Shown here: in pieces, positions 2,702-29,050 of the stretch
How positions within the stretch are numbered: position 1 is the first letter of the stretch
Layout: each line of letters opens with the position of its first letter
Source: Candidatus Jordarchaeales archaeon
GTDB taxonomy: Archaea > Asgardarchaeota > Jordiarchaeia > Jordiarchaeales > Freyrarchaeaceae
NCBI GenBank assembly: GCA_038858525.1
Contig: JAWCFL010000011.1
Span: 25,284-57,283, forward strand
Direction of reading: 5' to 3'
Length of the DNA stretch: 32,000 bases
The notes under the pieces: generated by a model
Database searches by the model: none
What the model was told of the DNA's origin: nothing
The model's input: the letters and a program-made list of their open reading frames with translations, nothing else
Program-made: the position numbers and the translations under genes

Positions 2702-3544
2702 TTAAATGTTTCGATTTGTCTTTTTAAGGTATTCTCCTATAGGAAGAAAAGAGACACCCTTGTCTTCGAGATACGCTATGAGACGGTAAAGTAGGGAAAC
2801 GTTCTCCTGCACTTGCCGAGGTGAGAGCTTCAAGTTAGATGAGATCCTGTATGCAAAATGCCATGCGTGAGTTGATATCATCAGTAAGCCACCATCGTCG
2901 TTCGCTATGTACGTATCCAGTATATGTTTAAATTCGTCGAAACTTCTTTTTCCCTCATGTAAAGTCCAAGTATAGAGCGTCGCCTTCCTTTCGTTTAAGG
3001 GGTATAATGGGAGGGGGACCTCAAACAATTTGCACCCTAAAAGGTATGGGTGAGGAGGCTTAAACGACTCCGAGTATATAGAAGAGTCATACTTGTAATC
3101 TAGAGACCTCAGAATTTCACCTAGATTGGGTGTAGTGGACAAGTATGGTGCTCTGAAGCCTACAGGCTTTAACCCTGTGATTTCTGATATTATCTCTGTG
3201 GCTTTTCTTATCAGCGCCAGCTGTTGAAGTGGGGGTATTGGAACACCAGTGTATTTTCCGGCGAGATCTTCGTGATCCAAACCGTGGCATCCAACCTCAT
3301 TTTTCGTAACGACTCCGAGTAACGCTTCATCATGAGCACATATGTGCTGAAGCGCTCTGGCTTCAACGAAAAAAGTCACCTTTAGACTTATTTCTTCCAG
3401 CATGTTGGAAAGCGCCTTCAGCCCCCTAATCGTACAAGTGAAGCTAGGCTTACATTCAGGAGAGTAACTGGCTGCCTTTAGCGTCCCACTTACAGGAACA
3501 GGGTAGTCACGGTCTAAGTCGATTGTGAGAGCGACGTAAGGCAT
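2702..3544 (-). CDS. Polysaccharide deacetylase (NodB-like) family protein
   Basis: VALTIDLDRDYP, ATFFVEAR-like KVTFFVEARAL, NEVGCHGLDHEDL, GFRAPYLS motifs. Confidence 0.8.
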   Translation of the reverse strand: MPYVALTIDLDRDYPVPVSGTLKAASYSPECKPSFTCTIRGLKALSNMLEEISLKVTFFVEARALQHICAHDEALLGVVTKNEVGCHGLDHEDLAGKYTGVPIPPLQQLALIRKATEIISEITGLKPVGFRAPYLSTTPNLGEILRSLDYKYDSSIYSESFKPPHPYLLGCKLFEVPLPLYPLNERKATLYTWTLHEGKRSFDEFKHILDTYIANDDGGLLMISTHAWHFAYRISSNLKLSPRQVQENVSLLYRLIAYLEDKGVSFLPIGEYLKKTNRNI

Positions 3545-7315: not shown

Positions 7316-8299
7316 GTGAGCGTTAAGTCTAGAGGGGTGCTTATTCCATCGGCTGTTGCAATGGTTTTAAAGAAGCAGAAGTACCAGCTTGTTGGGAGGC
7401 ACTCCGCAGTTAAGCGCTGCCATTGGTTTTACAAGGCGTTGACGGGCAGGGGACACTGTTACAAGCAGGAGTGGTATAATATTAGGTCGCATAGGTGTCT
7501 TCAAATGACGCCTTGCGCTGTGTTCTGCACCAATCGCTGTCTTCCATGCTGGCGTTTGGAGCCGGGGGATTTGGGGTTTGAATGGGATCAAATGGCGATA
7601 CTGAGGGAGGACGTAGATGAGCCGGAGGAAATTGTTGAGGAATGCATTAGGGCGCAACGAAGAATACTCACTGGTTTTAACCCTGCACACCACCAATTAG
7701 TTAGTGAGGAGAAGTGGAGGGAGGCACTTGAGCCTAAGCATGCTGCTATAAGTTTAGCAGGCGAGCCTACTCTTTACTCTGAACTGGGAGGCCTTATAGA
7801 GGCCTTCCACAGAAGGGGGATGACTACGTTTCTTGTGACAAATGGAGTGGTTCCCGAGAGGCTTGAGGAGATAGAGGAGCCGACGCAGCTTTACCTTACA
7901 CTTTACGCTCCATCTGAGGATGTCTATAAGCAGGTTTGTAGGCCTCTCCTAAAAGACGCTTGGAGCAGAGTTGTTGAAAGCCTAAGCTTACTGAGAAGTT
8001 TTAGTTGCCCGACGGTAGTGAGGCTTACTTTAGTTAAAGGGTTAAACTTTATGGAGCCAGAGAAGTACGCTGAGCTCATAAAGTTGGCTGAGCCCACTTA
8101 TGTAGAGTGCAAAAGCTACGTGTCGGTTGGAATGTCCCTTAGAAGAGGTTTAAACAATAGTAACATGGTGGGTGTTGGCGAATTAAGGTTATTTGCAGAA
8201 AAGATAGGAGAGGAGTTAGGGTATAACATTATAGGGGAGTCTGTTTCGAGTAGAGTTATCTTGTTGAGTAAGCTTAGCAAACCGATAAAAGTGGCTTAA
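7316..8299 (+). CDS. taw1: tRNA 4-demethylwyosine synthase, radical SAM (TYW1/Taw1)
   Basis: CAVFCTNRCLPCWR radical SAM cluster motif, FYKALTGRGHCYKQEWY, TYVECKSYVSVG. Confidence 0.9.
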   Translation: MSVKSRGVLIPSAVAMVLKKQKYQLVGRHSAVKRCHWFYKALTGRGHCYKQEWYNIRSHRCLQMTPCAVFCTNRCLPCWRLEPGDLGFEWDQMAILREDVDEPEEIVEECIRAQRRILTGFNPAHHQLVSEEKWREALEPKHAAISLAGEPTLYSELGGLIEAFHRRGMTTFLVTNGVVPERLEEIEEPTQLYLTLYAPSEDVYKQVCRPLLKDAWSRVVESLSLLRSFSCPTVVRLTLVKGLNFMEPEKYAELIKLAEPTYVECKSYVSVGMSLRRGLNNSNMVGVGELRLFAEKIGEELGYNIIGESVSSRVILLSKLSKPIKVA

Positions 8300-8389
8300 A
8301 CACGATTTTTTAAAGCGCAGGGCACAACCTTTAAACGTTTTAGGCTTTTCGGTATGCTGAAGAGAAAAGGTGCTACTAGGTGGCTCTTC

Positions 8390-9031
8390 ATGCCCATTAG
8401 AGATATTATCCTTAAAATAATAGAGGAGCTTGAGGAGAGGGATAAGGTTAGAGAGAAGGTTTTGTCTCTTTCAAGAGAGGTTGTGAGGCTTGCAGGCTTT
8501 GCGATAAGAGCGATGCATAGAGGCGAACTGAGGGATGCTGAGGAAAAGTTGAGGATGGCAGAGGAGCGCTTAAGTGACGCGGTAGCGACTACGGCAAAGT
8601 ATGACGAGTTCGCCTACAAGGGCTTTATGACTACGGCATTCCAAGAATACGCTGAAGCTCGCTTACTTCACGCTTTTATCATGGGCAGAGAAATTCCATC
8701 TCCCCAGGAGTTAAACGTTCCCAGTATTCCATACTTGATGGCGCTGGGCGATTTCGTTGGCGAGCTACGACGTAACGTGTTAATATGCATGAGAGATGGA
8801 AGGTTCGAAGACGCTGAAAGAGCTCTGGATTTAATGGAAGAGGTATATGTAAACATGATGCTTGTCGACTACCCAGAAGTCTCCTCTCTGGGGTTTAGGC
8901 AAAAGTGCGACGTCGCCCGTAGCCTCCTAGAAAGGACGAGAGCCGAGGTACTCCTCGTATCGCAGGAGGCTAAGTTAGCGGAGGGTATAGAGAAGCTCTT
9001 GAAGAGATGGAAGGGAGAGAATGAGGTTTAA
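8390..9031 (+). CDS. Translin family protein
   Basis: All-helical; YDEFAYKGFMTTAFQEYAEARLLHAFI, IPYLMALGDFVGELRR. ATG at 8390 (MPIRD) seems the better start; the ORF track opens at 8354. Confidence 0.85.
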   Translation: MPIRDIILKIIEELEERDKVREKVLSLSREVVRLAGFAIRAMHRGELRDAEEKLRMAEERLSDAVATTAKYDEFAYKGFMTTAFQEYAEARLLHAFIMGREIPSPQELNVPSIPYLMALGDFVGELRRNVLICMRDGRFEDAERALDLMEEVYVNMMLVDYPEVSSLGFRQKCDVARSLLERTRAEVLLVSQEAKLAEGIEKLLKRWKGENEV

Positions 9032-10586
9032 CATTAAAAAACTGCTGGAAAGAGCTGAGGAAGATTATGAAGCGGCTTGGGTTGAGTCGCGTGAGCTCCT
9101 CAAACTAGAGGGGAGATACTTCAGACTTAAGCCTCTTGGAAGAAGCAACGAAATAATGAATTTCATAGAAGAAGTGAGAAAAACGCTAGTAGAAATGGGC
9201 TTCGAGGAAGTGGTCTTGCCGGTGATCGTTGACGAGAGCGAGGTGCGTAAGGAATATGGCCCAGAGGCTACTATAATTCTGGATAGAGTGTTCTACCTGG
9301 CGGGGTTACCTAGACCCGATGTGGGGCTAAGCAAAGAGGATGCCGAGCGTATTAAGGAGCTGGTCCCATCGTTTAACGAATTCGAGAAGCTACGGGAGAT
9401 TCTCAGAAAGTATAAAAAGAGAAAGATAGAAGCAGACGATTTAGTTGAAACAATGGTTAACGAATTGTCGTTGCAAGAAGAGGACGCGACGAGAATAATA
9501 GACACCGTTTTCCATGCGTTCAAGAACCTTACCCCTGTCCCGTCGCCTCTTACTCTTAGGTCACACATGACGGCACTATGGTTTCCGGTTCTTAGCGCGA
9601 TTTACAAGTATAAGTGGAAAGAGTTACCAGTTCAACTTTTCACCGTTGGACAAAAATTTAGAAGAGAGCAGAAAATTGATCCAACACACCTTTACAGCTC
9701 GTACACTGCATCGTTCGTGATAATGACCGAAGAAATAAGTTTGGAGGATGGTAAGAGTATTGTTCAAGAATTTCTTGGGAGACTAGGGTTCTCGAAGGCG
9801 GAGTTTAGACTTAAGAAGGCGACTTCGAAGTATTATGCTCCCCAAACAGAGTTCGAGGTCTTCATACAGCATCCGGAAACTAGTGAGTGGATAGAAGTTG
9901 GAGACTGCGGTTTTTACTCTCCCGTCAGCCTTGCAAAATATGACATAGACGTTCCCGTATTTAACGCAGGTTTCGGCATTGAAAGGTTTGTCATGATAAG
10001 AACTGGAGAAACTGATGTGCGGCGGCTAACGTACCCCTACTTCTACAGACGTGACATCTACTCCGACGAAGAAATAGCTGAGGGGATATGCTACGCGGAG
10101 AAGCCAGAGACAGAGCTTGGAGAGGAAATAATGAACTCGATAATTAGCGTAGCTGAGGAGCACATGCATGCTGACGCACCCTGCAAGTTCACCGCTTGGA
10201 AAGGTAAAATTGATAGAGGAGAACTAACCGTGACTGTTTTCGAGGAGGAAAAGGGAGTTAAACTACTCGGCCCGGCGGCACTAAATGTAATATGCATTCA
10301 CGAAGGGAACATTTTAGGTCTTCCGCCATCCGAGGTGAGGGGAACCGTAACTAAGTTAAGGTACCTGGATGGTGTAGCAGCACTTTTCGCCAGAAAAGTC
10401 GAAAAAGAAATTTTAGAGGAAGGAAAGCGTGAGGTTAGTATGAAAGTGAGAATGGCGAAGAAGCCTTCGGATGTTAATATATACTTGAGTGAACAGGTTA
10501 GGCGCTACATTTCCTCAAAAAACAAGAGGATAGACATTAGAGGGCCTGTATTCATAAGCTTAGCGGCTTCACTAAATGACTCATAA
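9021..10586 (+). CDS. sepS: O-phosphoserine--tRNA(Cys) ligase (SepRS)
   Basis: MRFNIKKLLERAEEDYEAAW start, class II motifs including GQKFRREQKIDPTHLYSSYTASFVIM, NAGFGIERFVMI, YPYFYRRDIYSD. Confidence 0.95.
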   Translation: MRFNIKKLLERAEEDYEAAWVESRELLKLEGRYFRLKPLGRSNEIMNFIEEVRKTLVEMGFEEVVLPVIVDESEVRKEYGPEATIILDRVFYLAGLPRPDVGLSKEDAERIKELVPSFNEFEKLREILRKYKKRKIEADDLVETMVNELSLQEEDATRIIDTVFHAFKNLTPVPSPLTLRSHMTALWFPVLSAIYKYKWKELPVQLFTVGQKFRREQKIDPTHLYSSYTASFVIMTEEISLEDGKSIVQEFLGRLGFSKAEFRLKKATSKYYAPQTEFEVFIQHPETSEWIEVGDCGFYSPVSLAKYDIDVPVFNAGFGIERFVMIRTGETDVRRLTYPYFYRRDIYSDEEIAEGICYAEKPETELGEEIMNSIISVAEEHMHADAPCKFTAWKGKIDRGELTVTVFEEEKGVKLLGPAALNVICIHEGNILGLPPSEVRGTVTKLRYLDGVAALFARKVEKEILEEGKREVSMKVRMAKKPSDVNIYLSEQVRRYISSKNKRIDIRGPVFISLAASLNDS

Positions 10587-19183: not shown

Positions 19184-19546
19184 TCACGACTTTTTGCTCT
19201 CCTTAAGCGCAGCATAAGAAGTAAGGAGGTCCACCCAAGATTTGAGAAAACCCTTGGCGAACCCCGCCCTCTCAGGAAGGTTTGAGGAGAAAACTTGCGC
19301 CAGAGAATCCAGATACTTCGCGTATCTCCTAGCGTCTTCTGCTGAGAGACCATTCATTAGTGAAACTATTAGGGAAATCTGGTTAAGTTTTTCAAGACCT
19401 GCAAGCCAACCTCGCCAGGCCAGCTCAACCCATTTATCTTTAAACCGTGATTCCTCCAAAGCTGCTTTAGCGATTTCAATGGCCTTCTTGTGATCGCCTT
19501 CAGCCAATGCTTTAACGAATTCTTCAACTTCACTCAAAACAACCAC
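19184..19546 (-). CDS. Hypothetical small helical protein
   Basis: 120 aa ORF with a regular amphipathic composition; stop codon directly abuts a palindrome. Confidence 0.5.
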   Translation of the reverse strand: MVVLSEVEEFVKALAEGDHKKAIEIAKAALEESRFKDKWVELAWRGWLAGLEKLNQISLIVSLMNGLSAEDARRYAKYLDSLAQVFSSNLPERAGFAKGFLKSWVDLLTSYAALKESKKS

Positions 19547-19692
19547 CCTGCTTAATTAAATATATAAAAAGACGACTAATTAAGATTTCCAGCAAAATGA
19601 CGATTTCAGCAATCGAAAATGGATGTCGTAATCAGATATCGATACTTGAATTGCATTTTTTATTTTTGTTCAGTGCATGAAGTGCGACAAGC

Positions 19693-19713
19693 ACCCCTTC
19701 GTTTCTACTGTAA
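19693..19713 (-). promoter_or_regulatory. ORB-like element A
   Basis: Minus strand TTACAGTAGAAACGAAGGGGT, close to the archaeal Orc1/Cdc6 origin recognition box pattern (TTCCAsTGGAAAC-AAA-GGGGT). Confidence 0.75.
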
Positions 19714-19848
19714 CAGGTAAACTTATAAATCACTAAGCTAAACTTGAGCTTTTTATACAAAAAACTTATATCTTCTAAGTCCCAAGTATTTTGGGGGAGA
19801 GTTTTAATTTTAAAAGTTTAATTAATAAACTTAAGAGAGTTTTACTTT

Positions 19849-19870
19849 TTCCAGTTGAAACAGTGGGGTG
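19849..19870 (+). promoter_or_regulatory. ORB-like element B
   Basis: TTCCAGTTGAAACAGTGGGGTG followed by more G-rich sequence (GGTGGG). Confidence 0.75.
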
Positions 19871-19905
19871 GGTGGGTTTCCTTCTTTTATTTTGGAACAC
19901 ATGTT

Positions 19906-20193
19906 CTAAATGTTTTCTTCCTCTACAACTACAAAAACTCGGCACTTAACAATATCCTTGTATTTCTTGAAGAAAGCATTGAAGACTTCTGCGTGTTCAT
20001 CTTGAACTAGTATTGCGCTATCTCCTGCCCTGTCGCAACCATAGAAGTCCACAAGGCCTAATTTTTGCCCCTTTAATGTTTTTCCTTCCTTGTTTTTCCA
20101 TTTGTAGGCGTATCCGAAGAGTTCCTTGAAGAATTTCACCCTGCGCGGGTTACTCGAATGTTCCGCCTTTACGTCGTAGACGTATATTCTCAA
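19906..20193 (-). CDS. Hypothetical 95 aa protein, possible ferredoxin-like (Cas2-like?) fold
   Basis: MRIYVYDVKAEHSSNPRRVKFFKELF ... GLVDFYG ... DSAILVQDEHAEVFNAFFKKYKD ... CRVFVVVEE gives a beta-alpha-beta-beta-alpha-beta pattern. Confidence 0.55.
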   Translation of the reverse strand: MRIYVYDVKAEHSSNPRRVKFFKELFGYAYKWKNKEGKTLKGQKLGLVDFYGCDRAGDSAILVQDEHAEVFNAFFKKYKDIVKCRVFVVVEEENI

Positions 20194-20271
20194 AGTTTTC
20201 CCTCCATCAATACGTTGCAGCCATTCGTCTTTGAAGACTTGTATTTTCGTTGTCTTTTTGTGGTCAATAGC

Positions 20272-20638
20272 TTAACATGTTAACACAGTGTTAACATAGC
20301 CGTTTTGAGTTGTTAACACGTTGTTTTTGCTATGAATAATGCAAATTATCTTAGTTAAAAATTGACCCCTTTATTTCAACTGCAACATTTTTTTCGATAT
20401 TTTTCTCTTTCCTTTTCGTGTTAACACGGTTTGTTAACCTTTATTTAGAAAAAACAATGGAAAATTGTTTTTTTGAAGATTTACCGCTTTTTATTTCAAT
20501 TTTTCTTGTTAATACTTTTTAAAAATTCTCTTTGTCAAAAGATGGCGTATTTTTTCCTTTTTTTGTTCTTTTCGTGTTCGTCACGTTAACAAATTTACAC
20601 ATTATTTCTCTTTGTTTTTAACGCGTTGTTTTGTTAAC
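20272..20638. repeat. Cluster of seven GTTAAC-core palindromic repeats (consensus about tGTTAACac)
   Basis: GTTAAC at 20279, 20290, 20312, 20420, 20433, 20585 and 20633; includes GTTAACAC-A-GTGTTAAC (20279-20295) and GTGTTAACAC (20418-20427). Confidence 0.8.
20365..20385 (-). promoter_or_regulatory. ORB-like element C
   Basis: Minus strand TTGCAGTTGAAATAAAGGGGT. Confidence 0.7.
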
Positions 20639-20968
20639 GTATTGCGTGTTTTAGGTGAACCATTTCCCCCTTTAGAAAATAACGTTTTTTTGCTGGCTTC
20701 AAAGTTTTTATGGACTCTTCTTTTAGCTTATCGTAGAAAGCGGCATATGTTCTGTTTTTCAGAGGGATTGAGCTGCGGGTTAATGTTCAAGTGTAAAGTG
20801 TTTGGTGTTGGCTCCTGAAAGCCCCTGAGGTTGTATTTTTGTGGGTGGAATGCATTAGTCTTGCAGTTTGATTATTCTGCTTTTTATGTGTTGCTGGTTG
20901 GAGTTGTTAAGGGTGTTTTTCGGGTGTAATAGATAGACATATATATTTACGCGTGTAAGTTTAACTTA

Positions 20969-20986
20969 CCTCGTTTCCAGTGGAAG
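20969..20986 (-). promoter_or_regulatory. ORB-like element D, abutting the wHTH gene start
   Basis: Minus strand CTTCCACTGGAAACGAGG. Confidence 0.65.
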
Positions 20987-21466
20987 GTGTGCTGGTTGGG
21001 GGCGAAGCGCTACAAGATCGAGATAGTTGATGCCGAGCGCAACGTGAAGGCTACTTTGACTATTGAGGGTGATGTTTCCCCCCAGCTGGCGGCATCTCTT
21101 GTGGAGGAGCTTTCCGAGAAACTGTCTGAGGGCGGAGTGGCGGAGGAGGCACCTGCTGGGTTTGAGGCTTCCGAGGTTGACGCCGAGCTCCCCGACACTG
21201 AAAGTCTCTCGATGAAGGATAAAATTGAACTTGTACTGCTAAAGTATTTCCAGTATGGGTGGTTTACTTCTGGTGATGTTCATGAGCAGTTTACTCGGGT
21301 TTTTGGTGAGACCTCTCTAAGCGTGGTTTCAACATACTTGGCGAGGCTGCGTAGTGAGGGGCTCTTGGAGCGTAAGGGAACGAAAAAGCAGTATTATTAC
21401 CGGCTTAAGGAAAGTGGCCGGCTCAGGGCTTCTAGGCTTAGCGAGCTTCTTCAGCTTCTTCCGTGA
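20987..21466 (+). CDS. Winged-helix domain protein, origin-adjacent
   Basis: SMKDKIELVLLKYFQYGWFTSGDVHEQFTRVFGETSLSVVSTYLARLRSEGLLERKGTKKQYYYRL wHTH; GTG start. Confidence 0.75.
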   Translation: MCWLGAKRYKIEIVDAERNVKATLTIEGDVSPQLAASLVEELSEKLSEGGVAEEAPAGFEASEVDAELPDTESLSMKDKIELVLLKYFQYGWFTSGDVHEQFTRVFGETSLSVVSTYLARLRSEGLLERKGTKKQYYYRLKESGRLRASRLSELLQLLP

Positions 21467-21481
21467 AGTTGCTTCTCGACC

Positions 21482-21500
21482 GAGTGTGTTTCCAGTGTAA
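21482..21500 (-). promoter_or_regulatory. ORB-like element E (degenerate)
   Basis: Minus strand TTACACTGGAAACACACTC. Confidence 0.5.
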
Positions 21501-21537
21501 TATTAATGGATATATTTGCCGGAAGTTAAGCATTATT

Positions 21538-21558
21538 CACCTTTGTTTCCAGTGGAAG
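21538..21558 (-). promoter_or_regulatory. ORB-like element F, just upstream of orc1/cdc6
   Basis: Minus strand CTTCCACTGGAAACAAAGGTG. Confidence 0.7.
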
Positions 21559-21566
21559 TAGGAAAA

Positions 21567-22826
21567 GTGGTGGTTTGTTTGGGTGAACGTTCTCTTGAGG
21601 CGCTTTTTGAAAGGTTTCTCTCAACCAAGATCTTCAAGAATCGTGACGTGTTGAGTCATACTTATGTTCCTGACGAGTTACCTCACCGTGACGAGCAAAT
21701 AGAGAAGGTTGGGTTAATTCTCGCCTCAGCTCTTAAGGGCGGCACTCCTTCGAACGTTTTCATTTATGGAAAGACGGGTACAGGTAAGACTGCTGTCGTA
21801 CGCTTCGTTCTTAAGCACCTTGTTGCTAAGTGTCACGAGCTGAATGTGCCTGCTCCCTTACCCGCTTACCTTAACTGTAGAATTGTAAACACTAATTATC
21901 GTGTTCTGGCTCGGCTTTGCTCCTACTTAGGTGTCGAGGTTCCCTTTACGGGTCTGCCTACCGATGAGGTTTACAGTAGGTTTAGGGACGTGCTTGATAG
22001 CAGGGACGTGTTGATGATAATCGTGCTCGACGAGGTTGAACGGTTAGTTGAGCGGGACGGTAGTAACGTCCTCTACGACCTAACTAGGATGAATCACACT
22101 GTTCTTAAGCGGGCGCGCGTCAGCATAATAGGCATCACGAATGACTTAACGTTCAAGGATAACCTTGATCCTAGAGTGCTGAGTAGCTTAGGGGAAGAAG
22201 AGCTAGTTTTCCCGCCTTACACTGCCGCTGAGCTCAGGGACATTCTTTGGCAGAGGGCTCAGCTTGCCTTCAGAGAGGGCGCTCTTGAAGGTCCAGGAGT
22301 CATCAATCTTTGCGCAGCTATAGCCGCTAAGGAGCACGGGGACGCCCGTCGCGCCCTAGACTTGCTTAGAGTCGCTGGCGAGATAGCTGAGCGGGAGGGC
22401 GCAGAAAAGGTTTCCGAAGAGCATGTGAGAGCCGCTCAACACGTCATCGAGCGAGATCACCTGGTTGAGGCACTGAGAACTCTCCCTATGCATTCTAAGC
22501 TTGTACTTTACACTATTTTTGAGTTGACTAAGCAGGGAAGGGGTAAAGCTAGGACCGGGGACATATACAACTACTACTTGAACGTTTGCAGGCGTCTACA
22601 TGTTGAGCCGTTAACTCAGAGGCGGGTTAGTAGCCTTATAAATGAGCTTGACATGCTGGGTGTCGTTGCGGCTCATCTTAAAAGCAGAGGACGCCATGGG
22701 CTCTCGAAAGAAGTGAAACTCAACGTTTCAGTAAATCAAGTCAAACAAGTCTTAGAGGAGGATTCATTCATAAAGAAGCTTTCATCCAGTGACTCGTCTC
22801 CTCTCTTTGAGGCTAGTCCCCAGTAA
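21567..22826 (+). CDS. cdc6: Orc1/Cdc6 replication initiator
   Basis: SLEALFERFLSTKIFKNRDVLSHTYVPDELPHRDEQIE, Walker A YGKTGTGKTAVV, Walker B IIVLDEVERL, C-terminal winged helix. ORF track start 21516 (TTG) lies in the promoter/ORB; a GTG at 21567/21570 or TTG at 21579 is more likely. Confidence 0.93.
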   Translation: MVVCLGERSLEALFERFLSTKIFKNRDVLSHTYVPDELPHRDEQIEKVGLILASALKGGTPSNVFIYGKTGTGKTAVVRFVLKHLVAKCHELNVPAPLPAYLNCRIVNTNYRVLARLCSYLGVEVPFTGLPTDEVYSRFRDVLDSRDVLMIIVLDEVERLVERDGSNVLYDLTRMNHTVLKRARVSIIGITNDLTFKDNLDPRVLSSLGEEELVFPPYTAAELRDILWQRAQLAFREGALEGPGVINLCAAIAAKEHGDARRALDLLRVAGEIAEREGAEKVSEEHVRAAQHVIERDHLVEALRTLPMHSKLVLYTIFELTKQGRGKARTGDIYNYYLNVCRRLHVEPLTQRRVSSLINELDMLGVVAAHLKSRGRHGLSKEVKLNVSVNQVKQVLEEDSFIKKLSSSDSSPLFEASPQ

Positions 22827-24327
22827 AGTCCAGCTGAGCCACCCAGAAGTCCTTCAAATTAACGATGTACGGTTTTCCGGGTGTTGGTGTTAAGCCCATG
22901 GCTTTCTGATAATCTGTTTGGTCCTGAAATGTCCCTGAGTTTATCACGGTCACACCGCGATAATTTTCTTGCCCATTCACGTGAAGGTGGCCACAATGAA
23001 AAATATCTGGGACCTTCTCGATAACTAAGAGGTCCATTGGTTCAGGGGACAATGGCGTTGAACCATAGACTGGCGCTAAATGTCTTCCTCTAAGAAGCTC
23101 TATCATTGCTTTTTCCGGGTAGTGTGAGTCTATTGATAGAGCTGTCATCACGTCATTCAGCGGGTCTCCATGAAAGCATAACACCTCAACGCCGTGTATT
23201 CTAAAGTATGCTGGGTCTCCAAGCATTTCGACTCCTATTTCGTAAAGTGGTTCACTGTAATCTTTAGGTATGGCTGGCTGGGGTAATGCTTGCCTAGTTG
23301 CATCGTGCCCGCCCGGTATAGCTATAGTCTTAACGTAGTCTGGTACGTTTTCAAGATGCCTCGCTGCTATTTCGTATTGCGCGTAGAGTTCCTCGACGAC
23401 GAGCTCCTTCTCTTGATTCGGGTAGACTCCGACTCCATCCACTATGTCTCCTCCAATTACCAAGTATTTAACTTGTTTTGCCAAGCTTCTGCTTTTCTCG
23501 TCCCCTCTTTTGCCCTGAAGCCATTCTAGGAACCTTGTAAATGGTTTCTCCATGAATTTCTTGCTGCCGAAATGCGTGTCTGAAATGAAGACCGCCATTA
23601 TGGGTTCATCAGCCCTCCTAGGTTTGTGATCGAATGGTATGTCGGGCCAAATGATGTTATCAGCCACAACGAACGCTCCATTACTCCTACCTTCCACGCA
23701 GACTACTTGGTCCAGCATAAGGTGTCGCGCCTTGTCTGTTAAGTTGCTCGGGATTAGAACGCTGACCACACCGTCAAGATCCTCAAGTTCTATGACCATG
23801 GAGCCACTTCGAGCCCTCGAAATTTCCCTGACTAATCCTATTAACTTGACTTCCTCGGCTCTGCCTACTTCACATGTCCTACATATCCCTTTTATGTCCC
23901 CCCTTTTCAGAAAGAGGTTGCTGAGACGCATATATCTATCCTTGAAGTAATTAACAAAGTCGTCTAGGGACCCACTGGTTCCTATCATCTTTGTTGGATC
24001 CATCACCACTTCAAAATCTTCATCTACTTCCCTAGCGGTTAGGGCCGGCTTAGGCTTCAAGCCTGGAGGAATTATACTTTGTGCTTCCTCGCTTTTAGGA
24101 GCTTTTACATTAGTTGCTTCTCGGGGCTCCTCTTTTTCAATTAGCTTCCTAATATCTTCCTCTGTTAGGACAAGTGTTCCCTCTGTGGCCTTAACCTTAC
24201 TTATGACTAAGGAAGCTAAGCTAGGCTCAAGTGCCAATATGACGTCTAGCGCTCTGGGAGTAACTTGCAGTCCGGCTTCAAGCAACTCCTTAACTGTTCT
24301 CTTTGCAACCTGCGATGTCCCTATCAA
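22813..24327 (-). CDS. polB: Archaeal DNA polymerase II (PolD) small subunit DP1
   Basis: OB-fold region then calcineurin-like phosphoesterase: VFISDTHFGSKKF, IGGDIVDGVGVYPNQ, IPGGHDATRQALPQP, HCGHLHVNG; C-terminus overlaps cdc6 3' end. Confidence 0.93.
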   Translation of the reverse strand: MIGTSQVAKRTVKELLEAGLQVTPRALDVILALEPSLASLVISKVKATEGTLVLTEEDIRKLIEKEEPREATNVKAPKSEEAQSIIPPGLKPKPALTAREVDEDFEVVMDPTKMIGTSGSLDDFVNYFKDRYMRLSNLFLKRGDIKGICRTCEVGRAEEVKLIGLVREISRARSGSMVIELEDLDGVVSVLIPSNLTDKARHLMLDQVVCVEGRSNGAFVVADNIIWPDIPFDHKPRRADEPIMAVFISDTHFGSKKFMEKPFTRFLEWLQGKRGDEKSRSLAKQVKYLVIGGDIVDGVGVYPNQEKELVVEELYAQYEIAARHLENVPDYVKTIAIPGGHDATRQALPQPAIPKDYSEPLYEIGVEMLGDPAYFRIHGVEVLCFHGDPLNDVMTALSIDSHYPEKAMIELLRGRHLAPVYGSTPLSPEPMDLLVIEKVPDIFHCGHLHVNGQENYRGVTVINSGTFQDQTDYQKAMGLTPTPGKPYIVNLKDFWVAQLDFTGD

Positions 24328-27783: not shown

Positions 27784-28677
27784 TTATTTCTCTGATGCAA
27801 ACCTCCAAAACTCCTCTACCGCTGCGGACATCTTCCTTCTTTTGTCTCTAACAAGATACAGCACACGCTCGACGTCCCACCCTTCCACCTCAATGATCTT
27901 GACCAGTCCAGCGGCCTCTGCCTTCCTGGCAGCAGTCTCAGACAAAACGGTTATCCCAAGCCCCACAGACACCGCGTTTATCACCGCTTCCGTGCTGCCA
28001 GCTTCCAGTGATATCTTCACCTTGTCAAGAGGAACTCCCAGCTGCATGAAAGCTCTTTCTGCCTCAATTCTGGTTCCCGATGTTTTTCCCCTAAACACAA
28101 ATGGGTAACGTAAGCAATCCTCCAATGTAACTTTCTTTTTCATCGCAAGCTCATGGTTAACTGGACATATGAAAACAAGTCTTTCTCTTCCGATAGGCGT
28201 TACCTCTATCTCCTTAGCACTCGCCTCCATAAGGCTTCCCACAGCTGCTAGGTCAGCCTCTCCCCTAAGTAGCTTCTTTAAGGCTCCACCAGTATCTAAC
28301 ACCTCGATCTCAAAACTGATCTTCGGATTCTTTTCTTTGAATCGAGCCACTAATTCAGGAAGAATGTGCTCCCCTGGAATAGTGCTCGCTACAAGTATTA
28401 TTTTTTCCTCCCCCTCTCCCTCCATCTTTCTTAGCTCCTCCTTAATCTTCTCTACTAGTTCTAGAATCTCCTTAGCTCTCTTCAGCAGTGCTTCACCTTC
28501 CTTGGTTAACCTTACTGTTCTCCTACTCCTATCAAAAAGAGTTACACCAAAAAATTTCTCGAGCGCAGCTATGTGATTGCTTACTGTGGCTTGGGTCACT
28601 CCCAGCTCTCTAGCAGCCCTAAGGAACCCGCCCTTCTCCACAACCTCAACAAACGTTCTAAAGTACTCTATCCTCAT
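27784..28677 (-). CDS. LysR-family transcriptional regulator
   Basis: MRIEYFRTFVEVVEKGGFLRAARELGVTQATVSNHIAALEKFFGVTLFDRSRR HTH and periplasmic-binding-like effector domain. Confidence 0.93.
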   Translation of the reverse strand: MRIEYFRTFVEVVEKGGFLRAARELGVTQATVSNHIAALEKFFGVTLFDRSRRTVRLTKEGEALLKRAKEILELVEKIKEELRKMEGEGEEKIILVASTIPGEHILPELVARFKEKNPKISFEIEVLDTGGALKKLLRGEADLAAVGSLMEASAKEIEVTPIGRERLVFICPVNHELAMKKKVTLEDCLRYPFVFRGKTSGTRIEAERAFMQLGVPLDKVKISLEAGSTEAVINAVSVGLGITVLSETAARKAEAAGLVKIIEVEGWDVERVLYLVRDKRRKMSAAVEEFWRFASEK

Positions 28678-28846
28678 CCGTCACCCCTCTCTTTTTCCAG
28701 TATTTCCCAATGTACCATAAAAAATTTTTGATAAATGACACATATAAGATAACGTTTTGATCAATAAAACAAATTATCTTTTAGAATTTATAAAGATAAG
28801 TCCCCCGACACTCTATTAAAAACAAACTGAGAACGAAACTATAAAA

Positions 28847-29000
28847 TGGTGCGGGGGGTGGGATTTGTTCCCGCAGCAACGGATTGAACCCACGAACGCC
28901 TACGCCCACCTGGACTGCGCGACAGGATTCTGAGTCCTGCCCCTATAGCCGCTTAAACTTTGACTTAGCCTGCAGGCGCATCTGGCTTGGGTACCCCCGC
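28847..29000 (-). tRNA. tRNA-Leu(CAG) with four predicted short non-canonical introns and encoded CCA
   Basis: GCGGGGG acceptor pairs CCCCCGC + ACCA; anticodon arm CAGGA-CUCAGAA-UCCUG; T arm GUGGG-UUCAA[intron]AU-CCCAC; D arm and variable arm restored after intron removal. Confidence 0.88.
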
Positions 29001-29050
29001 ATCTACCGCCAATCACCTTCATTATGGCTTCCTCAAAAATTTTTTGATTT

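Follow-up and report, generated by a model that had tools for sequence, protein, structure and literature searches.

The window analyzed here, a 32,000-nucleotide (nt) stretch of contig JAWCFL010000011.1 from Candidatus Jordarchaeales, carries on its minus strand, from 29000 down to 28847, a 154-nt precursor (start GCGGGGGTACCC..., end ...CCCCCGCACCA) of an 88-nt class II tRNA-Leu(CAG). The gene consists of five exons, 88 nt in all with the CCA encoded, and four introns that take up the remaining 66 nt (43%). We put the probability at about 0.9 that this is a functional four-intron tRNA-Leu(CAG) gene in a thermophilic (hot-spring) Asgard archaeon. An earlier note on this DNA, made from its letters, had described a class II tRNA-Leu(CAG) that needs four excisions, has no intron at position 37/38, and could be missed by a standard tRNA finder. 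All of this is borne out below, and its coordinates are exact for the whole gene and introns 1, 2, and 4.

The interrupted gene and its introns

The raw locus escapes standard tools. ARAGORN finds no tRNA in the whole window, and Rfam gives no match at the gathering score and nothing tRNA-like around the locus even at E ≤ 10. Once all four segments are taken out, ARAGORN calls a tRNA-Leu(CAG) of 88–89 nt; none of the 15 partial excision subsets yields a tRNA-Leu (there is one spurious Val call with the -i option). The 88-nt product has a 7/3–4/5/5 cloverleaf, a long stemmed variable arm, the anticodon CAG, and A73, as befits a class II tRNA-Leu, and the conserved U8, A14, G18G19, U33, R37, and T loop UUCRANY are all present. 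The anticodon arm, with the loop CUCAGAA, lies uninterrupted within exon 3. Group I and group II self-splicing introns have a catalytic RNA core of hundreds of nucleotides; the insertions here are 15–19 nt long, have no Rfam intron matches, and belong to neither group. A relaxed acceptor/T-arm scan for other hidden tRNAs in the window returned this locus and 23 non-tRNA-like matches inside open reading frames (ORFs).

In the standard archaeal bulge-helix-bulge (BHB) motif, a helix of 4 base pairs (bp) separates two 3-nt bulges, one on either strand, and each strand is cut between the second and third nucleotides of its bulge. All four introns have 4/4 helix pairs at the cuts that the mature tRNA dictates. 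The central helix of intron 1 is AGCC/GGCT (four Watson-Crick pairs), flanked by the bulges AGA and AAG, and the local minimum free energy (MFE) fold recovers both this helix and the inner one. Intron 2 has GGTC/GGCT after excision of intron 1, or AGTC/GGCT before it, with the bulges AAA and ATA; intron 3, at 28900–28914, has GCGC/GCGT with AGT and AGG; and intron 4 has GTTC/GAAC (again four Watson-Crick pairs) with AAT and AAA. The inner helices of the four are TGC/GCA, G-C plus U.G, CC/GG, and CCG/CGG. When the intron letters were shuffled, the probability of a 4/4 helix at a product-compatible cut was 0.011, 0.046, 0.064, and 0.063, with a product of 2e-6. A central helix by itself was dropped as evidence, there being 99 chance 4/4 helices within the 154 nt; the BHBs are significant because their helices coincide with cuts defined by the product.

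How many other ways are there to make a tRNA from this precursor? All sets of at most five non-overlapping BHB-compatible excisions were enumerated. Acceptance by ARAGORN was too lenient to serve as a test of uniqueness and was abandoned, since 357 of 41,618 products were accepted, many of them with mangled D arms. A strict cloverleaf filter, which required all stems as well as U8, A14, GG in the D loop, U33, R37, and the T loop UUCRANY, passed only 7 of 107,272 excision products. All seven use precursor introns 20–36, 42–56, and 118–136 (that is, introns 1, 2, and 4), and they differ in the variable-arm cut alone. Being common to all seven, introns 1, 2, and 4 are fixed uniquely by the window. 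A fourth intron is certainly present in the variable arm, and its boundaries are ambiguous from the window alone.

Table 1. Parts of the tRNA-Leu(CAG) gene and its flanking elements; read on the minus strand from 29000 to 28847, exons and introns follow one another in the order of the rows.
Feature	Position	Strand	Length	Sequence	Location or content	Basis
Whole tRNA-Leu(CAG) gene	28847..29000	-	154 nt			ARAGORN after excision, BHB geometry, strict cloverleaf filter
Exon 1	28982..29000	-	19 nt	GCGGGGGTACCCAAGCCAG	Acceptor 5' strand, U8, D-stem 5' strand, D loop to G18	
Intron 1	28965..28981	-	17 nt	ATGCGCCTGCAGGCTAA	18/19 of D loop	BHB geometry, local MFE fold
Exon 2 (micro-exon)	28960..28964	-	5 nt	GTCAA	G19–A21, D loop	
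Intron 2	28945..28959	-	15 nt	AGTTTAAGCGGCTAT	21/22 of D loop	BHB geometry
Exon 3	28915..28944	-	30 nt	AGGGGCAGGACTCAGAATCCTGTCGCGCAG	D-stem 3' strand, anticodon arm, variable-stem 5' strand and loop	
Intron 3	28900..28914	-	15 nt	TCCAGGTGGGCGTAG	Boundary of variable loop and variable-stem 3' strand (after mature nt 54)	Best-supported boundaries
Exon 4	28884..28899	-	16 nt	GCGTTCGTGGGTTCAA	Variable-stem 3' strand, T-stem 5' strand, T loop to A58	
Intron 4	28865..28883	-	19 nt	TCCGTTGCTGCGGGAACAA	58/59 of T loop	BHB geometry
Exon 5	28847..28864	-	18 nt	ATCCCACCCCCCGCACCA	T-loop end, T-stem 3' strand, acceptor 3' strand, A73, encoded CCA	
A/T-rich box	29033..29046	-		CAAAAAATTTTTGA	33–46 nt upstream of tRNA 5' end	Inferred promoter element
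T-rich tail	28818..28846	-		TTTTATAGTTTCGTTCTCAGTTTGTTTTT	Immediately 3' of CCA	Inferred terminator

Conservation in related lineages

The host belongs to the Asgard archaea. The tRNA is preceded on its strand, at a distance of 51 nt, by a gene for a FAU-1-like RNase, which matches at 100% identity a protein from a Candidatus Jordarchaeales metagenome-assembled genome (MAG); the next FAU-1 relatives are labelled Jordarchaeales, Jordarchaeia, or Freyarchaeota. Other genes in the window are likewise archaeal, among them Cdc6/Orc1, the PolD small subunit, HypF, the C-terminus of a Hef/XPF nuclease, TYW1, and the alpha subunit of phenylalanyl-tRNA synthetase (PheRS). Downstream of the tRNA follows a LysR-type gene (27784–28677).

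The order FAU-1-like gene, interrupted tRNA, LysR-type gene is kept in three further lineages, represented by L001, L004, and L008, which were compared with the window. The identity of FAU-1 to that of the window is 82% in the first (L001–3, L010), 72% in the second (L004–6), and 61% in the third (L008, L009, L012, L091). The MAGs of L004 and L005 are GCA_038821275.1 and GCA_038889235.1, and L010 belongs to JAHLWX01. The gap between the FAU-1 and LysR genes always contains an interrupted tRNA-Leu(CAG), likewise missed by ARAGORN and the Rfam tRNA model, and BHB excision produces an 88-nt tRNA-Leu(CAG) in all four lineages; comparison with the tRNA-Leu(CAG) of related genomes, which the earlier note had named as a check, thus upholds the gene. 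The encoded CCA is conserved along with the synteny. The window (17, 15, 15, and 19 nt) and L001 (17, 15, 17, and 19 nt) have four introns; L004 has three (18, 16, and 16 nt), the T-loop intron being absent, and L008 also has three (21, 17, and 13 nt), without the 18/19 intron. Introns 1, 2, and 3 are each cut at one and the same mature position wherever they occur.

Across the four spliced sequences, every one of the 92 cloverleaf cells holds a standard pair, and five pairs (one in the variable stem, the other four in the anticodon stem) have undergone compensatory double changes. The covariation score was reached by none of 500 shuffles, and slid controls collapse. The exons of the three lineages are 97, 91, and 80% identical to those of the window, whereas the introns range over 53–100, 44–89, and 47–65%.

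A scan of metagenomes for further lineages turned up none that was new. In the mesophilic Freyarchaeia clade, with about 44% FAU-1 identity (L013–L016: Jordarchaeia RPF2 and QZM_A3, Freyarchaeota SQRJ_82, and the SRVP19 Freyarchaeia chromosome), there is no tRNA-Leu downstream of the FAU-1-like gene, and the tRNA-carrying synteny is confined to Jordarchaeales lineages with 61–100% FAU-1 identity. (A separate case is a 126-nt interrupted tRNA-Leu-like gene, GCGGGGGTGGCCGAGCCAGGTCAAAG...GGGTTCGAATCCCACCCCCCGCACCA, found near a FAU-1-like gene at 3299–3425 on the minus strand of L018 (uncultured archaeon, CAYYZD010000054.1). ARAGORN misses this one as well, and Rfam has a sub-threshold match to transfer-messenger RNA ("tmRNA") that is driven by the intact T arm and ACCA.)

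The relatives also bear on the placement of intron 3, for which the window offers seven BHB-compatible cuts. L001, L004, and L008 all have their variable-arm cut behind mature nt 54, where the 4-nt variable loop meets the 3' strand of its stem; the central helices are GCGT/GCGT, GCGT/GCGC, and GCGT/GCGT, respectively, and in L004 the cut is unambiguous, having no equivalent alternative. The homologous cut in the window, 28900–28914, gives the variable arm UCGCGCAGGCGUUC, one base off the UCGCGUAGGCGUUC of L001 and L004, and this is probably the real intron 3. The earlier note was right that an intron exists within 28894–28922 and that a CCTG/CAGG helix can be formed there, but probably not in placing the intron on that helix. 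The mature RNA that it predicted, with the arm UCGCGUAGGCGUUC, has to be corrected by one base to UCGCGCAGGCGUUC: no 4/4 BHB cut of the window yields the predicted arm, which is absent from the seven strict solutions, and the product-equivalent cuts that would yield it were rejected for want of a paired central helix.

If the gene had its four introns but intron 3 were cut on CCTG/CAGG (28907–28920, 14 nt), the result would be an 89-nt tRNA with the variable arm UCGGCGUAGGCGUUC. This helix is a perfect one of four Watson-Crick pairs with 3-nt bulges, and its product passes both ARAGORN and the strict filter. However, no relative is cut there, all three using GCGY/GCGY after nt 54; the product would have 89 nt and a bulged variable stem, against 88 nt in all relatives; and CCTG is the 3' strand of the anticodon stem, which would have to unpair. 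With seven BHB-compatible cuts in this G+C-rich stretch, a single perfect helix is not decisive, and we consider this placement unlikely. The two differ in the predicted mature junction (marked by a slash), which is UCGCGCAG/GCGUUC for 28900–28914 and CCUGUC/GGCGUAGG for the CCTG/CAGG cut. It is far less probable still that there are only three introns, the variable-arm insertion (or another) being kept in the mature RNA as a long arm or expansion. Class II tRNAs do tolerate long variable arms, and the exact boundary of intron 3 is ambiguous in the window. On the other hand, excision of introns 1, 2, and 4 without intron 3 gives no Leu tRNA by ARAGORN, all four lineages have a BHB at one shared position of the variable arm although the insertion is only 53–69% identical and 15–17 nt long, and the arm left after excision has 14 nt, is conserved, and shows one compensatory pair change. 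(In all four lineages, 4–5 nt of the variable-arm intron could also pair with the anticodon-stem 3' strand, which was set aside as not significant, the rough chance expectation being about 0.5 per lineage.)

Could the locus be an artefact of assembly, or a chimera? Its source is a MAG, but the same 154 nt recur without a difference in three independent assemblies (NCBI GCA_018383855.1 and two Logan runs), and homologous interrupted genes are found in three further lineages from other samples, so that such an origin is hardly credible.

Several points weigh against a functional gene spliced at all four sites. The introns do not have the strict hBHBh' form, with an outer helix h and an inner helix h' of at least 2 bp each: on inspection of the sequence, the outer helices are weak, absent, or displaced, and the local folds are consistent with this. 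The motifs read as relaxed HBh'-type BHBs, as is usual at non-canonical positions, and cleavage would therefore depend on a broad-specificity enzyme, which is assumed here. Pfam scans of the 30 ORFs of the window, to which the search was confined, found neither the endonuclease EndA nor the ligase RtcB. The strict BHB rule is not universal even among the relatives, the helix of intron 1 in L004 having an A.A mismatch. Competing BHB pairings are also available in the window, CCTG with the CAGG inside intron 3 and AGCC of exon 1 with the GGCT of intron 2, and the search for a second tRNA-Leu(CAG) copy covered the 32 kb of the window. As to the competing pairings, those at 28907–28920 and 28945–28999 are not conserved in the relatives; they could cause mis-splicing or be avoided through the order of folding. 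Skipping of exon 2 by pairing of AGCC with GGCT of intron 2 appears in the MFE fold of the window, but L001 and L004 do not conserve it, and it was judged non-functional.

The scope of that search and the failure of standard finders to see the locus would also suit a decaying or silent pseudogene with insertions, CUG being decoded by another gene. This is very unlikely. The exons are 80–97% conserved over four lineages while the introns diverge; the fully paired cloverleaves and the five compensatory double changes are not those of a decaying sequence; BHB geometry is kept at the product-defined cut where the insertion itself has changed; and the relatives keep both the gene order and the encoded CCA. 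Exons that hold while introns diverge, stem changes that compensate one another, and BHB geometry that persists together argue for a functional spliced gene rather than a pseudogene. CUG codons are also in use, making up 11% of the Leu codons in 23 window ORFs.

Splicing order and intron turnover

The two D-loop introns are separated by a micro-exon of only 5 nt, and the first position of the intron 2 helix is occupied by G18 if intron 1 is gone, or by the last A of intron 1 if it is retained. The partner base is U in the window, C in L001 and L004, and U in L008, which is without intron 1. With G18, the helix has 4/4 pairs in all lineages; with the A of the unspliced neighbor, it has 4/4 in the window and 3/4 in L001 and L004. 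Consistently, the enumeration found intron 2 of L001 only in the second round of excision, after removal of intron 1. It had been suggested from the window that intron 2 seems to need intron 1 to be spliced first. For the window itself this does not hold, since AGTC/GGCT is also 4/4, but the order is supported by covariation in L001 and L004. From these patterns, removal of intron 1 before intron 2 appears likely, a claim that rests on two informative lineages and is tempered by the tolerance for relaxed helices seen in the A.A mismatch of L004. If intron 1 goes first, the micro-exon GUCAA would stay covalently attached at every step.

What would the whole pathway look like? The primary transcript would comprise about 154 nt plus a leader. 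Each intron would fold locally into a relaxed BHB, with a 4-bp exon-intron helix, two 3-nt bulges, and usually a short inner hairpin. EndA would cut two nucleotides into each bulge and so release the introns at 18/19 and 21/22 (D loop), behind mature nt 54 (variable loop), and at 58/59 (T loop), and RtcB ligase would join the exons. Intron 1 would be removed first, then intron 2, so that the micro-exon would never be released free, and the product would be an 88-nt class II tRNA that has A73 and ends in an encoded CCA. While the structure of the gene, its BHB geometry, conservation, and covariation, and its invisibility to standard finders are shown here, the enzymes, the order of splicing, and expression are inferred. 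The expected EndA is the broad-specificity (alpha-beta)2 form with an L1 loop: non-canonical introns are cleaved only by (alpha-beta)2 and epsilon2 EndAs, and Asgard archaea carry an (alpha-beta)2 EndA with an L1 loop (PMC5829648). The annotation of the sister lineage Atabeya-1 includes several EndA (K01170) matches and an RtcB.

The introns themselves appear to come and go. In the T loop, the window (GTTC/GAAC) and L001 (GTTC/GGAC) have their intron cut at 58/59, whereas that of L008 (GGGT/GCCC) is cut at 56/57 and is shorter and dissimilar in sequence. Because of redundancy at the junctions, the point of insertion in the DNA is ambiguous, lying after mature nt 67–70 in the window versus 68–69 in L008. 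The difference could be due to a shift of BHB register at one site or to an independent gain. Taken together, an obligately ordered D-loop splice in which GUCAA is never freed might be combined, within one Asgard order, with active intron turnover (T-loop intron at 58/59, at 56/57, or absent; 18/19 intron present or absent; variable-arm sequence largely replaced). This combined proposal is tentative, and we regard it as somewhat doubtful. If true, a gene that is 43% intron would be a compact natural system for the enforcement of splice order and for the gain, loss, and sliding of BHB introns, in the archaeal lineage closest to eukaryotes. The four-lineage set provides a rare view of BHB-intron turnover within a single gene, along with covariation evidence for order-dependent splicing around a 5-nt exon.

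Surroundings of the gene and known systems

The A/T-rich box upstream of the tRNA recurs nearly unchanged, at about the same distance, in L001 and L008 and not in L004 (three of the four lineages, counting the window), and it is a possible promoter element of the TATA/BRE type (TATA box and B recognition element). A similar A/T palindrome-like box, CAAAAATTTTTTATGG (28715–28730, minus strand), precedes the LysR-type gene, and the two boxes may represent a promoter element common to both genes of this organism. The T-rich tail is plausible as an archaeal oligo-T terminator.

Elsewhere in the window, an A+T-rich non-coding stretch (19400–21560, GC 0.36–0.38) adjoins cdc6/orc1 (21516–22826), which is convergent with the PolD small-subunit gene (22813–24327). 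It contains three copies of GTTTCCAGTG[GT]AA[GT] (20973–20986, 21488–21501, and 21545–21558), a related TTCCAGTTGAAAC at 19849–19861, and several other repeats. The three copies resemble archaeal origin-recognition (mini-ORB) boxes, and the stretch is probably a replication origin. A row of plus-strand genes comprises a TYW1-like radical S-adenosylmethionine gene for wyosine formation (7316–8299), a translin-family gene (8354–9031), and the PheRS alpha subunit (9021–10586). Wyosine is a modification of tRNA-Phe, and the TYW1-like and PheRS alpha genes may for this reason be functionally linked.

What does the interrupted gene add to what is known? Four-intron tRNAs in Asgard archaea and ordered tRNA splicing are both already known, and no new mechanism is involved; the novelty implied by the earlier note was overstated, since four-intron tRNAs in this clade and order-dependent BHBs had been published. 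The gene does exceed the ceiling of "up to three introns" still quoted in 2021, and it extends to the thermophilic Jordarchaeales branch the extreme intron load described in 2024 for the mesophilic soil Freyarchaeia and Atabeyarchaeia. Moreover, a gene that is invisible to ARAGORN and Rfam, for an isoacceptor that is off the published Freyarchaeia list, means that tRNA inventories of Asgard MAGs are probably undercounted, which probably affects estimates of completeness and inferences about decoding and recoding.

Among tRNA genes with several BHB introns, those of the Thermoproteales (Pyrobaculum, Thermofilum, and Caldivirga) have up to three (Sugahara et al. 2007/2008, via the tRNAscan-SE 2.0 paper, PMC8450103), and closely spaced introns may require the removal of one before the BHB of the second can form (PMC8450103). 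The likeness extends to short non-canonical introns in the D, variable, and T regions, relaxed BHBs, an (alpha-beta)2 EndA (the type expected here), and introns that turn over between related species. The differences are that those organisms are Thermoproteota rather than Asgard archaea, and that their stated ceiling is three, whereas the present gene has four introns and none at 37/38. Nuclear tRNA genes of the red alga Cyanidioschyzon merolae have BHB-type introns, three at most, in the D, anticodon, and T regions, and a preferred order of intron removal was demonstrated by reverse transcription PCR (RT-PCR) (PMC3728597). There, however, the setting is a eukaryotic nucleus with a TSEN-type enzyme, the maximum is three, and the order was ascribed to BHB stability rather than to a helix spanning a junction (PMC3728597). 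Methanopyrus kandleri, too, has a tRNA with several non-canonical introns, and its EndA is heterotetrameric, as is expected here, but this (alpha-beta)2 enzyme is without the L1 loop and constrained in specificity, unlike the Asgard EndAs, which are reported to have the L1 loop that widens specificity (PMC5829648). Such breadth would be needed for the relaxed motifs found here.

The closest parallel is provided by the Freyarchaeia and Atabeyarchaeia, which belong to the same class as the host of the window or a neighboring one (the names Jordarchaeia and Freyarchaeota are used for the same relatives). In their complete genomes, 92–95% of tRNA genes have introns, over half have several, and there are up to four per gene (Valentin-Alvarado et al. 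2024, Nat Commun, PMC11291895). The four-intron genes in Supplementary Data 4 of that paper include, for Freya, Arg-TCT and Ile2-CAT (both 4/4) and Leu-GAG (4 by R2DT), and for Atabeya-2, Trp-CCA (4 by R2DT). The paper does not give the BHB anatomy of single genes, their comparison across lineages, or an analysis of splicing order. Its list of 38 Freyarchaeia tRNA genes, obtained with tRNAscan-SE and R2DT, includes Leu-CAA, -GAG, -TAG, and -TAA and not Leu-CAG, and in the rows shown, Glu, Phe, His, and Cys are among the other expected species also missing (PMC11291895). This suggests that more heavily disrupted tRNA genes are present but undetected in the complete Freyarchaeia genome, and the Leu-CAG gap fits with this isoacceptor being among the hardest to detect. 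It was already remarked in 2018 that incomplete Asgard tRNA sets point to unidentified disrupted genes (PMC5829648). The present genes are like those of the Freyarchaeia in having several short non-canonical introns, up to four (the lineages compared here have three or four). They are unlike those of the SRVP Freyarchaeia in coming from the thermophilic Jordarchaeales branch, where FAU-1 is only about 43% identical.

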